Shown here one piece after another: positions 9,669-17,626 of a stretch of 64,000 bases of DNA. Source of the stretch: Escherichia coli (lineage in GTDB: Bacteria; Pseudomonadota; Gammaproteobacteria; Enterobacterales; Enterobacteriaceae); NCBI RefSeq assembly GCF_046105845.1, contig NZ_CP151004.1. One strand, written 5' to 3'. The notes below the pieces were generated by a model, which did not search any database, was not told the DNA's origin, and saw only the letters and a list, made by a program, of their open reading frames with translations. Each line of letters begins with the position of its first letter. Positions within the stretch are counted from its first letter, which is position 1. The position numbers were made by a program, and so were the translations under genes.

Positions 9669-9692
9669 GGGCCGCGAAAGCGGCCCTTTTTT
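9669..9692 (+). terminator. Intrinsic terminator of tktA
   Basis: gggccgc gaaa gcggccc hairpin followed by tttttt. Confidence 0.8.
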
Positions 9693-10591
9693 ACTTGGTG
9701 GAGATAAACGGAACTGTGCTGCCGGGGATCATGGTATCGGGTAGCTTACCGTCCCAACGCTCTGCAGTGGTTAGGGCAACAAGTCCGGGATTATCCCGCA
9801 GAGCTTCACCGCGCAGGCGGATAGCTTCTGCTTCAGCCGCACTTTTTAAACGAATAGTTTCAGCCTCTGCCGCGCCTCTTACGCGAATAGTCTCAGCTTC
9901 TGCTTTGGCTGCCGCCAGTTTACTGTCTGCTTCAGCCTGGGCCTGAGTTACTGCTATTTGCGCCTGGATTTTCTCTGTTTCCAGATTTTGCTTACGTGTG
10001 GCAATGGCGACTTCTGCTTTCATTCGATCTTCAATCGATTTTTCATAAGCGTCAGAAAAATCAATATTTTCAATCTGGACACCATCAATCACCACCGGGC
10101 CAACAACGGCTTTACGCATTGCATTTTGCAGATCCTGAACCAGTTTTGTACGATCCTGTACCGCGCTGATGGCGGTATATTGGCCGAAAACGTTCTCCAG
10201 TTGAGTTGGCAGCTGGCGGACGATCAGACGCTCTTTTAAAGATTCAATGGTGTTGTAGGTTGTATAAACTGCGCCAGCTTCTGAAGGTTTAATGTGGAAG
10301 CTGACTGATACTGTCATTTGTGCCGGTTGCTGGTCGCGGCTGTAGGCCCTGATAAACCACAGCCTGATTACGCGTGGAAATTTTCTCCACGCTTTCCATA
10401 AAAGGGATCTTAAAACCCAGACCCGGCTCGGCAACTTTTACGATTTTTCCGTAGCGCAGCAAAATGCCGCGTTCACCTTCATTAACGGTGTAATACGAGA
10501 GAAATGGCAGCACAACCACGGCAAGCACGCCAATGACGATAGCAATAGATTTTTGTGGGCGAAATGAGGTTATTGAAACAGGTGCTTTCAT
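9691..10591 (-). pseudogene. SPFH/band-7 (stomatin/prohibitin/HflC-like) membrane protein gene with disrupted reading frame
   Basis: N-terminal part (ORF 10289..10627; real start likely MKAPVSITSF at 10591 with SD aaggaag) and C-terminal part (ORF 9691..10434) are offset by one frame; junction near 10342-10354. N-terminal TM helix; C-terminal AEAETIR coiled-coil repeats and ...ERWDGKLP motif. Confidence 0.6.
9815..9905. repeat. Three imperfect ~27-nt tandem repeats inside the SPFH coding sequence
   Basis: Units like gcggatagcttctgcttcagccgc / acgaatagtttcagcctctgccgcgcc / acgcgaatagtctcagcttctgc encode AEAETIR(V/L)... repeats on the minus strand. Confidence 0.6.
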
Positions 10592-10627
10592 ATGAATCTT
10601 CCTTGAGTAAAGTGGGGAATATGTCAC

Positions 10628-10967
10628 ATGAGGTGAGGAGAAAATAGCCGACAGGTGAGAATTCAGAATCTATAAAGGGGTATAGCGAAAAAACATTGCA
10701 TTAAAAAAGTATGTTTTCGGACATTCAATAAATAAATGGCGATATGCATCACAAATACAACAACAATCAAAATGTTGATTTTGTGACAAACATAACAAAT
10801 ACAAAATTGACTTTAAAAATATCAATTTCATGTTGTTGTTATTTAAAGTTTTATTATTTTTGTTCATGGGGTTTTTCTTCTCGCGTACCCAATTGCTTTC
10901 ATTAAACCGCACGAGTATTTTATTTTTACCGCCGGACGGTACCCTAAAAATAAAATAAGGATAATTT
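10628..10967. promoter_or_regulatory. Very AT-rich intergenic region carrying the divergent promoters of the SPFH gene and cmtBA
   Basis: About 340 bp with long A/T tracts and short repeats (caaatacaa twice); a partial CRP-like tgtgacaaacataaca motif. Confidence 0.4.
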
Positions 10968-11411
10968 ATGCGGCTTAGTGATTATTTTCCAGAGTCATCA
11001 ATCTCAGTTATACATTCAGCAAAAGATTGGCAGGAAGCTATTGATTTCTCGATGGCATCATTGCTGGATAAAAACTATATCAGCGAGAATTACATTCAGG
11101 CAATTAAAGATTCCACCATTAACAATGGCCCTTATTATATTCTCGCACCAGGTGTGGCAATGCCTCATGCGCGACCGGAATGTGGGGCGCTTAAAACCGG
11201 GATGTCTTTGACGTTACTTAAACAAGGCGTTTATTTTCCGGGGAATGACGAACCGATTAAATTACTCATCGGGCTTTCTGCTGCCGATGCCGATTCGCAC
11301 ATTGGCGCTATTCAGGCGTTAAGTGAATTACTAAGCGAAGAAGAAATACTCGAACAACTCTTAACAGCATCATCAGAAAAACAATTAGCGGACATTATCA
11401 GCCGCGGATAA
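10968..11411 (+). CDS. cmtB: PTS mannitol-type enzyme IIA component (cryptic)
   Basis: 147-aa ORF with PTS EIIA(Mtl/Fru) fold features (...APGVAMPHARPE...); AT-rich gene. Confidence 0.9.
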   Translation: MRLSDYFPESSISVIHSAKDWQEAIDFSMASLLDKNYISENYIQAIKDSTINNGPYYILAPGVAMPHARPECGALKTGMSLTLLKQGVYFPGNDEPIKLLIGLSAADADSHIGAIQALSELLSEEEILEQLLTASSEKQLADIISRG

Positions 11412-11438
11412 TTACTCTCTCCTCTACAGGATAATATT

Positions 11439-12827
11439 ATGGAAAACAAGTCTGCTCGTGCAAAGGTCCAAGCTTTTGGGGGTTTTTTGACGGCAATGGT
11501 CATCCCCAATATCGGTGCTTTTATTGCCTGGGGCTTTATAACTGCGTTATTTATTCCCACCGGTTGGCTGCCGAATGAACATTTCGCCAAAATTGTCGGC
11601 CCGATGATTACCTATTTATTGCCCGTGATGATTGGTTCTACTGGTGGTCATCTGATCGGCGGCAAACGCGGCGCGGTCATGGGCGGAATAGGTACTATTG
11701 GTGTGATCGTCGGCGCAGAGATCCCGATGTTCCTTGGCTCAATGATCATGGGACCGCTCGGTGGGCTGGTCATAAAATATGTCGATAAGGCACTGGAAAA
11801 ACGCATACCTGCCGGTTTTGAGATGGTTATCAATAACTTCTCATTAGGTATCGCGGGGATGCTCCTTTGTCTGCTGGGTTTTGAAGTGATCGGCCCTGCG
11901 GTGTTAATTGCCAATACTTTCGTCAAAGAGTGTATTGAGGCGCTGGTACATGCGGGTTATCTGCCTTTGCTGTCAGTCATCAATGAACCGGCGAAAGTGC
12001 TTTTCCTTAATAATGCGATCGATCAGGGCGTCTATTATCCGCTGGGAATGCAACAGGCATCAGTTAACGGCAAATCCATCTTCTTTATGGTGGCCTCTAA
12101 CCCAGGTCCGGGCCTGGGGCTGCTGCTGGCGTTTACCTTGTTTGGTAAAGGGATGAGTAAACGTTCTGCGCCAGGGGCGATGATTATTCACTTCCTCGGT
12201 GGGATCCACGAACTGTATTTCCCATATGTGCTGATGAAGCCGCTGACCATTATTGCCATGATTGCGGGCGGTATGTCTGGCACCTGGATGTTTAACTTAC
12301 TGGACGGTGGTCTGGTGGCTGGCCCAAGTCCGGGGTCTATCTTTGCTTACCTGGCACTGACGCCGAAAGGCTCGTTCCTGGCGACAATTGCCGGTGTTAC
12401 GGTAGGTACCCTGGTGTCCTTTGCTATCACTTCGCTGATACTGAAGATGGAAAAAACGGTGGAAACGGAGAGCGAAGATGAGTTTGCTCAGTCAGCCAAT
12501 GCGGTTAAGGCGATGAAACAAGAGGGTGCATTCTCGTTAAGCCGGGTTAAGCGTATCGCCTTTGTTTGCGATGCGGGGATGGGCTCCAGCGCGATGGGCG
12601 CAACCACCTTCCGTAAACGTCTGGAAAAAGCGGGGCTGGCAATTGAAGTAAAACATTACGCGATAGAAAACGTGCCTGCGGATGCGGATATCGTTGTTAC
12701 TCATGCCAGTCTGGAAGGGCGCGTGAAACGTGTGACGGATAAACCGCTGATACTGATTAATAACTATATTGGCGATCCAAAACTCGACACTTTATTTAAT
12801 CAATTAACCGCCGAACATAAAAACTGA
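11439..12827 (+). CDS. cmtA: PTS mannitol-type enzyme IICB component (cryptic)
   Basis: 462-aa polytopic membrane protein with C-terminal EIIB domain (CDAGMGSS). Confidence 0.92.
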   Translation: MENKSARAKVQAFGGFLTAMVIPNIGAFIAWGFITALFIPTGWLPNEHFAKIVGPMITYLLPVMIGSTGGHLIGGKRGAVMGGIGTIGVIVGAEIPMFLGSMIMGPLGGLVIKYVDKALEKRIPAGFEMVINNFSLGIAGMLLCLLGFEVIGPAVLIANTFVKECIEALVHAGYLPLLSVINEPAKVLFLNNAIDQGVYYPLGMQQASVNGKSIFFMVASNPGPGLGLLLAFTLFGKGMSKRSAPGAMIIHFLGGIHELYFPYVLMKPLTIIAMIAGGMSGTWMFNLLDGGLVAGPSPGSIFAYLALTPKGSFLATIAGVTVGTLVSFAITSLILKMEKTVETESEDEFAQSANAVKAMKQEGAFSLSRVKRIAFVCDAGMGSSAMGATTFRKRLEKAGLAIEVKHYAIENVPADADIVVTHASLEGRVKRVTDKPLILINNYIGDPKLDTLFNQLTAEHKN

Positions 12828-12841
12828 TTGCCGAGGTAAAA

Positions 12842-14119
12842 ATGAAAACCAAAGTTGCTGCTATTTATGGCAAGCGGGATGTCCGTCTGCGCGAATTTGA
12901 ACTGCCAGAAATTACCGATAATGAACTGTTAGTGAGTGTGATTTCTGACAGCGTCTGTTTATCGACCTGGAAAGCGGCGTTACTCGGTAGTGAACATAAA
13001 CGCGTACCCGACGATTTAGAAAATCATCCGGTCATTACCGGGCATGAATGTGCCGGGGTTATTGTTGAAGTGGGTAAAAATCTCACCGACAAATATAAAA
13101 AAGGCCAGCGTTTTGTATTGCAACCGGCGATGGGGTTACCAAGCGGATATTCAGCGGGCTACAGCTACGAATATTTTGGCGGTAACGCCACCTATATGAT
13201 TATTCCCGAAATCGCCATTAATTTGGGCTGCGTATTACCGTATCACGGCTCTTATTTTGCTGCGGCGTCGCTGGCAGAGCCTATGTGCTGCATTATTGGC
13301 GCTTATCATGCCAATTATCACACCACGCAATATGTTTATGAGCATCGCATGGGCGTTAAACCTGGCGGCAGTATTGCGCTGCTGGCATGTGCTGGTCCGA
13401 TGGGCATTGGCGCTATCGATTATGCTATTAACGGCGGCATACAACCGTCGCGGGTGGTGGTGGTCGATATCGACGACAAACGCCTGGCGCAGGTACAAAA
13501 GCTGCTGCCGGTGGAACTGGCGGCCAGTAAAGGCATTGAGCTGGTGTATATGAATACCAAAGGGATGAGCGATCCGGTCCAGACGCTGCGGGCGCTGACG
13601 GATGATGCCGGATTTGATGACGTATTTGTCTATGCAGCGGTGCCTTCAGTCGTCGAGATGGCTGATGAATTACTGGCGGAAGATGGCTGCCTGAACTTCT
13701 TTGCCGGGCCGACGGATAAAAACTTCAAAGTGCCGTTTAATTTCTACAACGTCCATTACAACAGCACGCATGTCGTCGGTACGTCCGGCGGTTCAACGGA
13801 CGACATGAAAGAGGCGATTGCGCTTAGCGCCACAGGGCAGTTGCAGCCGTCGTTTATGGTGACCCATATCGGTGGGCTGGATGCGGTGCCTGATACCGTG
13901 CTCAATCTGCCGGATATCCCCGGCGGTAAAAAACTCATTTATAACGGTGTGACCATGCCGCTCACTGCCATTGCCGATTTTGCCGAAAAAGGCAAAACCG
14001 ATCCGCTGTTTAAAGAGCTGGCGCGGCTGGTTGAGGAAACGCACGGCATCTGGAATGAGCAGGCCGAGAAATATCTGCTGGCGCAATTTGGCGTTGATAT
14101 CGGGGAGGCCGCGCAATGA
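12842..14119 (+). CDS. yggP: Zn-dependent polyol/alcohol dehydrogenase-like protein
   Basis: 425-aa ORF recognised as YggP (MDR superfamily). Confidence 0.88.
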   Translation: MKTKVAAIYGKRDVRLREFELPEITDNELLVSVISDSVCLSTWKAALLGSEHKRVPDDLENHPVITGHECAGVIVEVGKNLTDKYKKGQRFVLQPAMGLPSGYSAGYSYEYFGGNATYMIIPEIAINLGCVLPYHGSYFAAASLAEPMCCIIGAYHANYHTTQYVYEHRMGVKPGGSIALLACAGPMGIGAIDYAINGGIQPSRVVVVDIDDKRLAQVQKLLPVELAASKGIELVYMNTKGMSDPVQTLRALTDDAGFDDVFVYAAVPSVVEMADELLAEDGCLNFFAGPTDKNFKVPFNFYNVHYNSTHVVGTSGGSTDDMKEAIALSATGQLQPSFMVTHIGGLDAVPDTVLNLPDIPGGKKLIYNGVTMPLTAIADFAEKGKTDPLFKELARLVEETHGIWNEQAEKYLLAQFGVDIGEAAQ

Positions 14120-15081
14120 TGTCCCTGGCGTGGCCATTATTTCGCGTTACGGAACAGGCAGCGTTGGCTGCCTGGCCGCAAACCGGATGTGGCGACAAAA
14201 ATAAAATTGATGGCCTGGCGGTCACCGCGATGCGCCAGGCATTAAACGACGTCGCTTTTCGTGGGCGAGTGGTTATCGGCGAGGGAGAGATTGACCATGC
14301 GCCGATGCTGTGGATTGGCGAAGAGGTGGGCAAAGGCGATGGGCCAGAAGTCGATATCGCGGTTGATCCCATTGAAGGTACGCGGATGGTGGCGATGGGG
14401 CAGAGCAATGCGCTGGCGGTCATGGCTTTCGCCCCTCGAGATAGCCTGTTACACGCGCCCGATATGTATATGAAAAAACTGGTTGTTAATCGGCTGGCGG
14501 CGGGCGCGATTGATCTGTCCATGCCTCTGGCGGACAACTTGCGCAACGTGGCGAAAGCGTTAGGCAAACCGCTGGACAAGCTGCGTATGGTTACGCTGGA
14601 TAAACCGCGCCTGAGTGCCGCAATTGAGGAAGCAACACAGCTGGGCGTGAAGGTTTTTGCCCTGCCGGATGGCGATGTCGCCGCCAGCGTGCTGACCTGC
14701 TGGCAGGATAATCCTTACGATGTGATGTACACCATCGGCGGTGCGCCAGAAGGCGTGATTTCTGCCTGTGCCGTTAAAGCATTAGGCGGGGATATGCAGG
14801 CCGAGCTGATTGACTTTTGTCAGGCTAAAGGGGATTACACGGAAAATCGGCAGATTGCAGAGCAGGAGCGCAAGCGTTGCAAGGCAATGGGCGTTGACGT
14901 TAACCGTGTGTACTCGCTCGATGAACTGGTGAGGGGGAACGATATCCTCTTTAGTGCTACGGGCGTGACGGGCGGCGAGTTGGTGAACGGTATCCAACAG
15001 ACGGCGAATGGGGTGCGGACGCAGACATTACTGATCGGCGGCGCGGACCAAACGTGTAATATAATAGACTCCCTGCATTGA
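14116..15081 (+). CDS. yggF: Class II (GlpX-like) fructose-1,6-bisphosphatase
   Basis: 321-aa ORF with GlpX-family sequence; start overlaps the yggP stop (ATGA). Confidence 0.9.
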   Translation: MMSLAWPLFRVTEQAALAAWPQTGCGDKNKIDGLAVTAMRQALNDVAFRGRVVIGEGEIDHAPMLWIGEEVGKGDGPEVDIAVDPIEGTRMVAMGQSNALAVMAFAPRDSLLHAPDMYMKKLVVNRLAAGAIDLSMPLADNLRNVAKALGKPLDKLRMVTLDKPRLSAAIEEATQLGVKVFALPDGDVAASVLTCWQDNPYDVMYTIGGAPEGVISACAVKALGGDMQAELIDFCQAKGDYTENRQIAEQERKRCKAMGVDVNRVYSLDELVRGNDILFSATGVTGGELVNGIQQTANGVRTQTLLIGGADQTCNIIDSLH

Positions 15082-15102
15082 TGGTGATCTATCGGAAGAC
15101 CA

Positions 15103-15612
15103 ATGGCGACGCTGACAGAAGATGATGTGCTTGAGCAACTGGATGCACAGGACAATTTATTTTCATTTATGAAAACTGCGCATTCTATTTTGCTCCAGGG
15201 GATACGCCAGTTTCTGCCGTCGCTGTTTGTCGATAATGATGAAGAGATCGTCGAATATGCAGTGAAGCCGTTACTCGCCCAAAGCGGCCCGCTTGACGAT
15301 ATTGATGTTGCACTGCGTTTGATTTATGCGCTGGGAAAAATGGATAAATGGCTGTACGCCGATATCACCCATTTTTCCCAGTTCTGGCATTACCTGAACG
15401 AACAGGATGAAACGCCCGGATTTGCCGATGACATGACCTGGGATTTTATCAGCAACGTCAATAGCATAACCCGCAATGCGACTCTCTATGACGCGTTGAA
15501 AGCGATGAAGTTCGCCGATTTCGCCGTCTGGTCAGAGGCGCGTTTTAGCGGGATGGTCAAAACGGCGCTGACGCTGGCAGTAACGACAACCTTAAAGGAA
15601 TTAACGCCGTGA
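15103..15612 (+). CDS. yggD: MtlR-family protein YggD (reported as fumarase E)
   Basis: 169-aa ORF MATLTEDDVLEQLDAQDNLFSFMKTAHSILLQG... Confidence 0.88.
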   Translation: MATLTEDDVLEQLDAQDNLFSFMKTAHSILLQGIRQFLPSLFVDNDEEIVEYAVKPLLAQSGPLDDIDVALRLIYALGKMDKWLYADITHFSQFWHYLNEQDETPGFADDMTWDFISNVNSITRNATLYDALKAMKFADFAVWSEARFSGMVKTALTLAVTTTLKELTP

Positions 15613-16322
15613 AAATCGAACTGACGGTGAATGGACTAAAGGTACAGGCGCAGTACTCTGATGATGAAATTGAGAATGTTCATAAACCGCTACTGCGTAT
15701 GCTGGCGGCCTTACAGACGGTAAATCCGCAGCGGCGTACGGTGGTTTTTCTTTGCGCTCCGCCGGGGACGGGTAAATCTACCCTAACCACCTTCTGGGAA
15801 TATCTCGCGCAACAAGACCCGGAACTACCCGCTATTCAGACACTCCCGATGGATGGTTTTCACCATTACAATAGCTGGCTGGATGCGCATCAATTGCGCC
15901 CCTTCAAAGGCGCACCAGAGACATTTGACGTTGCGAAACTGGCGGAAAATCTGCGCCAGGTCGTGGAAGGGGATTGTACGTGGCCGCAGTACGATCGACA
16001 AAAGCATGATCCTGTTGAAGATGCGTTGCACGTTACCGCACCACTCGTCATCGTCGAAGGAAACTGGCTATTACTGGATGATGAAAAGTGGCAGGAGTTG
16101 GCATCTTTCTGCGATTTTTCTATTTTTATTCATGCACCTGCTCAAATTCTGCGGGAGCGCTTGATTAGTCGTAAAATTGCGGGAGGATTATCGCGGCAAG
16201 AAGCCGAAGCTTTTTATGCCCGAACCGATGGTCCCAATGTCGAGCGTGTGCTGGTGAATAGTCGTCAGGCCAATCTGATATTAGAGATGACCGAAGAAGG
16301 CAGATATCACTTCAAAAGCTGA
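15609..16322 (+). CDS. yggC: P-loop nucleoside/pantothenate-kinase-like protein
   Basis: 237-aa ORF with Walker A motif APPGTGKST; start overlaps the yggD stop. Confidence 0.88.
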   Translation: MKIELTVNGLKVQAQYSDDEIENVHKPLLRMLAALQTVNPQRRTVVFLCAPPGTGKSTLTTFWEYLAQQDPELPAIQTLPMDGFHHYNSWLDAHQLRPFKGAPETFDVAKLAENLRQVVEGDCTWPQYDRQKHDPVEDALHVTAPLVIVEGNWLLLDDEKWQELASFCDFSIFIHAPAQILRERLISRKIAGGLSRQEAEAFYARTDGPNVERVLVNSRQANLILEMTEEGRYHFKS

Positions 16323-16606
16323 CAATTTATTCCAGTTATTGCAGGGGGATTATTACGCCAGCCTGGAATAAAGCTCCCTACAAAAGGGGATAAAAGTGTG
16401 ATGTAAGTCAGATAAATGTCTTCTTCGGCTGGACAATCATTCCTTTTATTCCACGTTTCGCTTATCCTAGCTGAAGCGTTTCAGTCGATTAAATGTTCGA
16501 CAATTAACCAATCAGTCGCAGTTTGCGACAGGTAAGGTTTCCCCGAACGATTTGCTGGATTACTCTGTCAGGCAAATTTGCTCAGGGAAAACCTTGCAGG
16601 AGATCT

Positions 16607-17626
16607 ATGACCGTACGCGTAGCGATAAATGGCTTCGGTCGCATCGGGCGTAATGTGGTTCGTGCTTTGTATGAATCCGGACGTCGGGCGGAAATTACCG
16701 TGGTGGCAATCAACGAACTGGCGGATGCTGCGGGCATGGCGCATTTGTTGAAATATGACACCAGCCATGGCCGTTTTGCATGGGAAGTACGACAGGAACG
16801 CGATCAACTTTTTGTTGGTGATGACGCCATCCGCGTATTGCATGAACGTTCACTGCAATCGCTCCCCTGGCGTGAACTTGGCGTTGATGTAGTCCTCGAC
16901 TGCACCGGCGTATATGGCTCCCGCGAACATGGCGAAGCGCATATTGCCGCCGGGGCTAAAAAAGTGCTCTTTTCACATCCTGGCAGTAACGATCTCGATG
17001 CGACCGTTGTTTACGGCGTCAATCAGGATCAACTTCGTGCGGAACACCGCATCGTTTCTAACGCTTCCTGTACCACGAATTGCATAATTCCCGTCATCAA
17101 ATTGTTAGATGATGCGTACGGTATTGAGTCCGGCACTGTGACCACAATTCACTCCGCCATGCACGATCAACAGGTTATTGATGCATACCATCCTGACCTG
17201 CGTCGCACCCGGGCAGCCAGCCAGTCGATCATTCCGGTCGATACTAAACTGGCCGCCGGTATCACACGATTTTTTCCGCAATTTAACGATCGCTTTGAAG
17301 CGATTGCGGTACGTGTGCCAACCATAAATGTGACGGCAATCGATTTAAGCGTGACGGTGAAGAAACCTGTAAAAGCCAATGAAGTCAACCTGTTGCTGCA
17401 AAAAGCAGCACAAGGTGCATTTCATGGTATAGTTGACTATACGGAATTGCCGTTGGTCTCTGTAGATTTTAACCACGATCCGCACAGTGCCATTGTCGAT
17501 GGCACCCAAACCCGGGTCAGTGGCGCACACCTGATCAAAACGTTGGTCTGGTGCGATAACGAATGGGGCTTTGCTAACCGAATGCTCGACACGACGTTAG
17601 CTATGGCTACTGTTGCTTTCAGGTAA
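16607..17626 (+). CDS. epd: D-erythrose-4-phosphate dehydrogenase
   Basis: ORF 16523..17626 trimmed to [15 protein letters not shown] (NAD-binding motif) at 16607, SD gcaggag; 339 aa. Confidence 0.95.

Follow-up and report, generated by a model that had tools for sequence, protein, structure and literature searches.

The closest described relatives of the genes considered here belong to four groups of carbon-source operons. The mannitol operon mtlADR encodes the phosphotransferase system (PTS) permease MtlA (IICBA), MtlR and the mannitol-1-phosphate 5-dehydrogenase MtlD, which yields fructose-6-phosphate directly and needs neither a kinase nor a fructose-1,6-bisphosphatase (FBPase). The sorbose genes, sorCDFBAME of Klebsiella and the sor genes of lactobacilli, combine a PTS-linked dehydrogenase of the SorE type with a mannose-family PTS and a second dehydrogenase of the short-chain dehydrogenase/reductase (SDR) type, without a kinase or a bisphosphatase; SorE converts L-sorbose-1-phosphate to D-glucitol-6-phosphate, acting at the carbon beside the phosphorylated C1. 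In fruBKA and in the galactitol and tagatose pathways, a PTS product is phosphorylated a second time to a ketose-1,6-bisphosphate, which meets a class II aldolase, and glpFKX places a class II FBPase inside a carbon-source operon, an arrangement that is sensible if a pathway enters at or below the bisphosphate. The cmtBA-yggPFDC cluster, which lies at positions 10968-16322 of a 64,000-nucleotide stretch of Escherichia coli DNA (contig NZ_CP151004.1; hereafter the window), has features in common with each of these systems. We propose that it is one catabolic operon, dependent on cyclic AMP (cAMP) and CRP, for a manno-configured polyol that is processed through a ketose-1-phosphate and not by the MtlD route, a proposal that in our judgement stands an even chance of being correct.

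With mtlADR, the cluster shares a mannitol-subfamily EIIC, IIB and IIA, an MtlR-family protein and catabolite control, and CmtA is about 51% identical to the canonical Rahnella MtlA encoded just downstream of the Rahnella cmt-type cluster. In contrast to mtlADR, the cluster encodes its IIA on its own, has as dehydrogenase a Zn-dependent paralog of SorE and not a member of the MtlD family, and adds a P-loop kinase and a class II FBPase. The SorE-type, PTS-linked dehydrogenase is shared with the sor operons, whereas the mannose-family PTS, the SDR enzyme and the lack of kinase and bisphosphatase set those operons apart. The second phosphorylation is the logic of fruBKA, but the kinase is of the P-loop type related to phosphoribulokinase (PRK) and pantothenate kinase (PanK) and not of the PfkB family, and a dehydrogenase step would precede it; from glpFKX, the cluster differs in transporter and chemistry.

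Six intact, co-directional reading frames on the plus strand occupy exactly the interval that the sequence-only reading had delimited as a six-gene block, and curated profiles and RefSeq agree with all of its functional labels (IIA, IICB, dehydrogenase, GlpX-type FBPase, MtlR-like protein and P-loop kinase). The first gene, cmtB (10968-11411), encodes a PTS enzyme IIA of the mannitol/fructose type (147 residues) that scores 321 bits in a profile search with the mannitol-type IIA model (curated cut-off 192) and carries the phosphorylatable His67 in the motif AMPHA. It is followed by cmtA (11439-12827) for a mannitol-subfamily EIICB (462 residues) with the IIB-domain Cys377 in CDAGMGSS; by analogy with MtlA, we take both motifs to be the active sites. 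The scores of CmtA exceed the cut-offs of NF011663 (591.8 versus 589 bits) and of TIGR00851, the mannitol-specific EIIC model (480.4 versus 468.4 bits), by small margins, so that the mannitol subfamily is assigned but the substrate is not. The dehydrogenase gene yggP (12842-14119) encodes a Zn-dependent medium-chain enzyme of 425 residues with the Pfam domains ADH_N and ADH_zinc_N, a paralog of SorE, the L-sorbose-1-phosphate reductase. YggF (14116-15081; 321 residues) is a class II, GlpX-type FBPase that matches the equivalog model TIGR00330 over its full length (586 bits, cut-off 259) and Pfam FBPase_glpX with 405 bits and has the motif DPIEGT at residue 84. The all-helical YggD (15103-15612; 169 residues), annotated as fumE, belongs to the MtlR family (PF05068, 179.6 bits; NF007455, 335 bits, cut-off 167), and YggC (15609-16322; 237 residues, GTG start) is a P-loop kinase of the PRK, uridine kinase and pantothenate kinase superfamily (NF006742, the YggC-type kinase model, 507 bits, cut-off 402) with the Walker A motif APPGTGKST at residues 50-58. 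The intergenic gaps from cmtB to yggC measure 27, 14, -4, 21 and -4 bp, the two overlaps being ATGA at yggP/yggF and GTGA at yggD/yggC; from this packing and from the conservation described below, we infer that cmtBA-yggPFDC is co-transcribed.

While these coordinates and gene calls were right, the first two genes had both been described as markedly AT-rich, which holds for cmtB (42.6% GC; 37.8% at third codon positions) but not for cmtA (49.9% and 54%). The mean GC content of the window is 51.5%, and that of the spacer upstream of cmtB (10628-10967) is 30.6%. The cluster is flanked by tktA upstream and epd-pgk downstream. It is an ordinary, already known locus of the E. coli K-12 type, and nothing in the window itself is new: the K-12 locus, from tktA to epd-pgk-fbaA, has the same genes, order, lengths and flanks, and RefSeq E. 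coli genomes annotate the same six genes, with yggD as 'fumE, fumarase E'. Compared with the K-12-type locus, the window has its own allele of the cluster and a frameshifted prohibitin-family gene between tktA and cmtB.

The idea that the six genes serve a single pathway derives its main support from comparative genomics. An alignment of YggP homologs was scanned against one genome per species, which gave 80 loci (designated by L numbers), and the six proteins were mapped onto these loci and all neighbouring reading frames clustered. In each of three distant lineages, Enterobacterales, Vibrionaceae and Bacillota, the genes for IIA, IICB, YggP and YggC lie side by side in all complete loci, and 42 of the 80 loci, from Enterobacterales, have the identical order cmtB-cmtA-yggP-yggF-yggD-yggC. 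The cluster lies between tkt and epd-pgk-fba in many Enterobacterales genera and at unrelated chromosomal sites in Hafnia (between menF and menD), Yersinia, Providencia, Limnobaculum and Serratia. Vibrionaceae have cmtB-cmtA-yggP-yggD-yggC without yggF, followed in 16 of 18 loci by a gene for a YcdX-like PHP-domain phosphatase. The Bacillota arrangement is IIA-yggC-IICB-yggP, which we take to resemble fruB-fruK-fruA, with a PRD-type regulator instead of YggD; several Bacillota possess only the four core genes and the PRD regulator between unrelated flanks. Since the order is conserved even where the flanks are unrelated, the notion of one sugar-alcohol-phosphate pathway, already raised by the sequence-only reading, is well supported by this conservation.

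The link between YggP and SorE came from a protein search of plasmids, which returned YggP-like genes annotated as sorE. Aligned with SorE of the canonical Klebsiella sor operon, YggP shows 45% identity (E = 2e-131) across 417 positions, which cover about 98% of YggP, and the homology includes a C-terminal extension beyond ordinary medium-chain dehydrogenase/reductase (MDR) enzymes; ordinary alcohol and sorbitol dehydrogenases match YggP with E = 1e-10 or weaker. The Klebsiella sorE gene lies with those for a regulator, an SDR dehydrogenase and a mannose-family PTS next to metH-iclR, and in a sor-type cluster on a Lactiplantibacillus plasmid, a protein known by annotation only as a zinc-binding dehydrogenase is 41.5% identical to YggP. 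Across 16 homologs with identities down to 65%, Cys39, His68, Glu69 and Glu146 of YggP do not vary, and neither does the glycine-rich loop GPMGIG; by analogy with polyol dehydrogenases, we take the four residues to be the Zn ligands. Read from the phosphate, C2-C4 of D-glucitol-6-phosphate have the configuration of D-mannitol-1-phosphate, so that a SorE-like enzyme combined with a mannitol-type PTS should turn a manno-configured polyol-1-phosphate into a fructo-configured ketose-1-phosphate. On this stereochemical argument, which is our own reasoning on paper, a fructo-configured ketose-1-phosphate would be expected as the product of YggP. Asp209 of YggP, at the end of the second Rossmann strand, was considered as a predictor of reaction direction by way of cofactor preference and was dropped, because SorE has Asp at the same position and the residue does not discriminate.

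Based on these comparisons, we propose the following hypothetical pathway, in which (i) CmtB and CmtA would import the polyol and phosphorylate its terminal carbon, as their family membership and intact phosphorelay residues suggest; (ii) YggP, by virtue of its paralogy to SorE, would oxidise the carbon beside the phosphate to give a ketose-1-phosphate; (iii) YggC would add a phosphate at the far end, giving fructose-1,6-bisphosphate (FBP) from a hexitol or sedoheptulose-1,7-bisphosphate from a heptitol; and (iv) the ketose bisphosphate would be split by a class II aldolase or, alternatively, relieved of its 1-phosphate by YggF to leave the 6- or 7-monophosphate, a putative role for a protein whose one published activity is that of an FBPase. 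YggD would act as the regulator, probably through protein contacts, as MtlR may, and not through DNA binding. Because a ketose-1-phosphate is not a central metabolite, the proposed product of YggP would explain the universally linked kinase.

YggC is predicted to be a ketose-1-phosphate kinase, its acceptor being suggested by analogy to FruK and by gene neighbourhood. Its role in adding the second phosphate is indicated by the core that stands alone in some Bacillota, by the fru-like gene order and by a second YggP paralog whose neighbours in two loci (L067 and L085) are a FruK-like 1-phosphofructokinase and an aldolase. The stand-alone four-gene core further implies that the joint product of YggP and YggC should suit housekeeping enzymes. 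The accessory genes vary by lineage and encode YggF, the PHP phosphatase, a pyrophosphate (PPi)-dependent phosphofructokinase (PPi-PFK), class II aldolase, transketolase and transaldolase. One slot, that of bisphosphate/monophosphate conversion, is filled by three unrelated enzymes, namely YggF in Enterobacterales, the PHP phosphatase in Vibrionaceae and, upstream of the cluster in three loci, PPi-PFK in Bacillota, as is expected if the hub of the pathway is a ketose bisphosphate. An aldolase is encoded nearby in several loci: the gene for a class II FBP-type enzyme overlaps the yggP stop codon in Hespellia (L085), a tagatose-bisphosphate-type aldolase gene lies near the cluster in L067, and an fba-tkt pair follows yggC immediately in Rahnella laticis (L047). 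The order of tkt, FBPase, PRK-family kinase, glyceraldehyde-3-phosphate dehydrogenase-like gene, pgk and fba also recalls the Calvin-cycle cbb operon; we judged this a coincidence, because YggC matches the pantothenate kinase and uridine kinase (Udk) models and not phosphoribulokinase.

The same homology between YggP and SorE could be read in the opposite direction. CmtAB would then import a ketose as its 1-phosphate, YggP would reduce it, and MtlD- or SrlD-type enzymes of the host would complete the route, as the full-length paralogy to a protein that acts as a reductase in the sor operon would allow and as the label 'L-sorbose 1-phosphate reductase', given to YggP orthologs by several sources, implies. 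However, CmtA lies above the trusted cut-off of the mannitol-specific EIIC, while the sor operons compared use a mannose-family PTS; the cluster has no conserved second dehydrogenase such as the SDR enzyme present in both sor operons; and the linked kinase as well as the associations with bisphosphatase, aldolase and PPi-PFK would be left unexplained. We consider such a sorbose-like route improbable, although not negligibly so.

The family to which YggC belongs is, judging from its sequence relatives, broader than this cluster. Its best match among solved structures is the structural-genomics entry PDB 3C8U (E = 1e-21), followed by pantothenate kinases at about 1e-10, and a SEED-based study predicted YggC to be a 'sugar/polyol kinase', listing a test as in progress (PMC3223725). 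Among metagenomic proteins, two YggC-type kinases of 571 and 568 residues carry an N-terminal PfkB sugar kinase (P0212 and P0237, the latter in L088), and one of 533 residues carries a C-terminal Cof-type HAD sugar phosphatase (P0136, L089); a gene of the lyxose-isomerase family and one for an FGGY kinase lie near that of the PfkB-YggC fusion. These fusions, each from a single contig, point the same way as a bisphosphate pathway. Alternatively, YggC could be a regulatory kinase that acts together with YggD or the PTS proteins, which would reduce the pathway to the PTS and YggP, with or without YggF. The overlap of yggD and yggC and their adjacency in Enterobacterales and Vibrionaceae would fit such a function, as would the lack of YggD DNA binding in chromatin immunoprecipitation with exonuclease digestion (ChIP-exo) and the phenotype of a Sinorhizobium frcK mutant, in which fructose uptake is about halved and mannitol transport is deregulated (PMC10433430). 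Yet in Bacillota, yggC lies between the IIA and IICB genes and YggD is missing, the nearest solved relatives besides 3C8U are the small-molecule pantothenate kinases, and the fusions to a PfkB sugar kinase and a Cof sugar phosphatase, like the FruK-type kinase beside the second YggP paralog, speak for a metabolic substrate. A regulatory YggC thus seems unlikely to us, if somewhat less so than the sorbose-like route.

Turning to YggF and YggD, the FBPase activity of YggF is attributed to Brown et al. 2009 where PMC8719807 and PMC10733421 cite that work, and in the passages concerned the enzyme is reported to be less efficient than Fbp and deletion of yggF to impair fermentative growth on glycerol slightly. 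YggD resembles PDB 3C8G (E = 8e-110) and, more distantly, the MtlR entries 6KCR (3e-12) and 3BRJ (1e-8); only MtlR-family models match it, and no homology to class I or class II fumarases was detected. No binding sites of YggD were found by ChIP-exo in a study that calls the protein 'verified as fumarase E' (PMC8464067), a name that, where this study cites its source, goes back to an in vitro metabolomics screen. A primary source for the label was not found in the literature searched. The constant place of yggD in a PTS cluster and its replacement by a PRD-type regulator in Bacillota argue against fumarase as the main role of the protein, and we regard 'fumarase E' as at most an in vitro side activity.

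For the polyol itself, three chain lengths were weighed. A hexitol, mannitol or an epimer, would pass through fructose-1-phosphate and then FBP; it is the most economical candidate, but leaves the link to transketolase unexplained. A C7 polyol would be oxidised by YggP from heptitol-1-phosphate to sedoheptulose-1-phosphate, which YggC would convert to sedoheptulose-1,7-bisphosphate, and the route would end either in sedoheptulose-7-phosphate, with YggF acting as a sedoheptulose bisphosphatase, or in dihydroxyacetone phosphate and erythrose-4-phosphate, released by a class II aldolase. GlpX-type phosphatases, PPi-PFK and class II aldolases act on sedoheptulose as well as fructose phosphates, and the C7 candidate accommodates all accessory enzymes. 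It would further account for the transketolase gene, in some cases joined by a transaldolase gene, that lies beside the cluster in at least five arrangements from three lineages. A transketolase gene adjoins the cluster in Enterobacteriaceae and in L047 and starts 16 bp past the PHP gene in Vibrio mediterranei (L075), tal-tkt lies upstream of the cluster in four Vibrionaceae loci (Vibrio L060, L062, L070 and L080), and ptsI-ptsH-tktN-tktC directly follows yggP in Anaerotalea (L081). Against this candidate, no precedent, be it a bacterial heptitol PTS or a sedoheptulose-1-phosphate kinase, was found in the searchable literature, and that the substrate is a C7 polyol such as volemitol, or a related C7 sugar, remains in our view a long shot worth naming. 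The pentitol D-arabitol, processed through xylulose-1-phosphate and xylulose-1,5-bisphosphate, agrees with the stereochemistry and with the link to transketolase; we ranked it below the C6 and C7 candidates because the core stands alone in several Bacillota and the aldolases are of the FBP or tagatose-bisphosphate type.

Upstream of cmtB, the window contains two CRP-like boxes on the plus strand, 44 bp apart. The distal box, GGCGATATGCATCACA (10738-10753), has two mismatches to TGTGA-N6-TCACA and lies 230 bp upstream of the cmtB ATG, and the proximal box, TGTGACAAACATAACA (10782-10797), has one mismatch and lies 186 bp upstream. A pair spaced by 43-45 bp recurs in 32 of 53 Enterobacterales loci, whereas 20 shuffles per locus produced no such pair, and the boxes have kept their position within sequence that is otherwise not conserved. 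In most Vibrionaceae loci there is a single box, some 90-95 bp ahead of the ATG. The boxes are in line with genomic SELEX (systematic evolution of ligands by exponential enrichment) and lacZ fusions in E. coli, by which cAMP-CRP was found to bind and activate the cmtB promoter and to bind also near yggF (PMC3105977). When 21 Enterobacteriaceae upstream regions were aligned, conservation was highest in roughly the last 75 bp before cmtB. The conserved leader block (10890-10967, plus strand) includes a short hairpin (10927-10941), the Shine-Dalgarno sequence AAGGA and a candidate weak promoter, TTGCTT (10893-10898) and TATTTT (10916-10921) separated by a 17-nt spacer, which the consensus scan did not flag. 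Promoter and terminator consensus scans of 10400-16700 gave six matches of each kind, no more than in shuffled sequence, so that promoter prediction, which the sequence-only reading had named as a check, neither supports nor refutes an operon. No intrinsic terminator was seen by the consensus scan after yggC as far as epd, which may allow read-through into epd-pgk-fbaA; the spacer between yggC and epd also contains a CRP-like box upstream of epd-pgk-fbaA, TGTGATGTAAGTCAGA (16397-16412), with one mismatch. Whether the AT-rich upstream region keeps the operon silent in the laboratory is a matter of speculation.

Several observations weigh against a single catabolic operon of the kind proposed here. 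SorE, the only characterised relative of YggP, works reductively on a ketose-1-phosphate. FrcK of Sinorhizobium, a relative of YggC, does not serve as the fructokinase, and the unclear part that it plays may concern transport (PMC10433430), while more distant YggC homologs (P0152, P0172 and P0214) occur in unrelated, uninformative or housekeeping contexts. The yggF gene is absent from the Rahnella and Budvicia loci, YggD has been described as a fumarase, and with mannitol no difference in growth was seen for a Salmonella serovar that bears the cluster. In older operon tables, cmtBA and yggDC are entered separately. Inside yggP, a sigma-54-like site, CTGGCGGCAGTATTGCG (13362-13378, plus strand), is oriented towards yggF and matches at 15 of 17 positions the site detected there in E. 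coli K-12 by chromatin immunoprecipitation sequencing (ChIP-seq; PMC4591121); together with the CRP binding near yggF, it could indicate internal promoters.

Taken further, these regulatory data would make the genes mere neighbours with promoters of their own, namely a redundant, silent mannitol PTS, a spare gluconeogenic FBPase, a minor fumarase and unrelated yggP and yggC, a picture that also agrees with the effect of YggF on fermentative growth on glycerol and with the annotation of YggD as fumarase E. It is at odds with the order and tight spacing kept across genera and chromosomal sites, with the linkage of the core in three distant lineages and with the yggP/yggF and yggD/yggC overlaps, which fit translational coupling. 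We therefore hold such a set of independent neighbours to be rather improbable, much on a level with the sorbose-like route, and retain the single operon as the preferred interpretation.

The cmt genes were reportedly named 'cryptic mannitol' in the early 1990s. This name, the absence of a known phenotype and the pseudogene state of the flanking prohibitin-family gene in the window might suggest that the cluster is a decaying, non-functional remnant. Pairwise comparison with orthologs from Escherichia, Salmonella, Citrobacter, Klebsiella and Buttiauxella, however, gave ratios of nonsynonymous to synonymous substitution rates (dN/dS) of 0.02-0.19 for the six genes, by which measure all six are under purifying selection. 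All six reading frames are full length, the cluster retains CmtB His67, CmtA Cys377 and the Walker A motif of YggC, and the putative Zn ligands of YggP are invariant. A 7-kb query finds a match in all but one of the 5426 complete E. coli genomes, the best being 98.5% identical; as at least 80% of this query is covered in only 3593 of the 5425 matching genomes, part of the 7-kb region is variable. Published work further describes the induction of cmtB in bovine gut contents and in insect infection. Decay is thus already largely refuted and in our opinion hardly credible; the intact frames and motifs and the low dN/dS mean that 'cryptic' stands for not expressed or not understood.

Consistent with the sequence-only reading, which had called the substrate unknown, no paper assigning one was found in the searchable literature, which omits most subscription journals. 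As to whether a function has already been assigned, partial functions have been published, namely FBPase for YggF, fumarase E for YggD and activation of the cmtB promoter by CRP. Intact and under purifying selection, cmtBA-yggPFDC is among the better-conserved unassigned genes of E. coli. The comparative pattern narrows the candidate functions to a SorE-type polyol-phosphate 2-dehydrogenase, a P-loop ketose-phosphate kinase and a bisphosphatase, and calls into question the 'fumarase E' label that is now spreading in RefSeq. If YggC is indeed a ketose-1-phosphate kinase, it would represent a non-homologous replacement of FruK-type enzymes and provide a function for a widespread kinase family that includes FrcK and a plant homolog.

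Further observations concern the allele in the window and the surroundings of the cluster. Compared with the GTDB representative of E. coli (L009), dS is 0.14-0.45, and CmtB and YggC are only 88% and 93% identical, so that the divergence is about as large as that from E. albertii (comparison with L009, L012 and L001), whereas the proteins of E. coli VCSW5 are 98-100% identical to those of the window. The divergence is much greater at the ends of the cluster (cmtB and yggC) than in the middle, a pattern suggestive of recombination with other Escherichia lineages. Between tktA and cmtB, the prohibitin/SPFH-family gene (9691-10627, minus strand) is a pseudogene in this window: compared with the intact 909-nt gene of VCSW5, an 8-bp deletion near 10348 (GGATTACA, between short direct repeats) shifts the frame and breaks it into two overlapping reading frames.

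Some serovars of Salmonella enterica have been described as carrying the cluster as an accessory island. Between yggC and epd, minus-strand genes are inserted as a block in E. albertii, Salmonella arizonae/diarizonae, several Citrobacter and other genera (L010-L012, L014, L016-L019, L022, L023, L027, L033, L037 and L049); among them are two ABC-ATPase-like genes as well as genes for small membrane proteins and for a small soluble protein, and the tkt-epd interval looks like a repeated insertion site. In Rahnella spp. (L050-L054, at about 12950-16800), a five-gene cmt-type cluster without yggF lies about 1.4 kb upstream of mtlA-mtlD-mtlR, where the assignment of MtlD was confirmed with 713 bits, so that this genus has two mannitol-type systems next to each other. 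Finally, a locus labelled Chryseobacterium sp. 18061 (L038) shows the Enterobacteriaceae-type arrangement of tkt side, cmt cluster and epd-pgk-fba, with a YggP that is 88% identical to that of the window; this assembly is probably mislabelled or contaminated.

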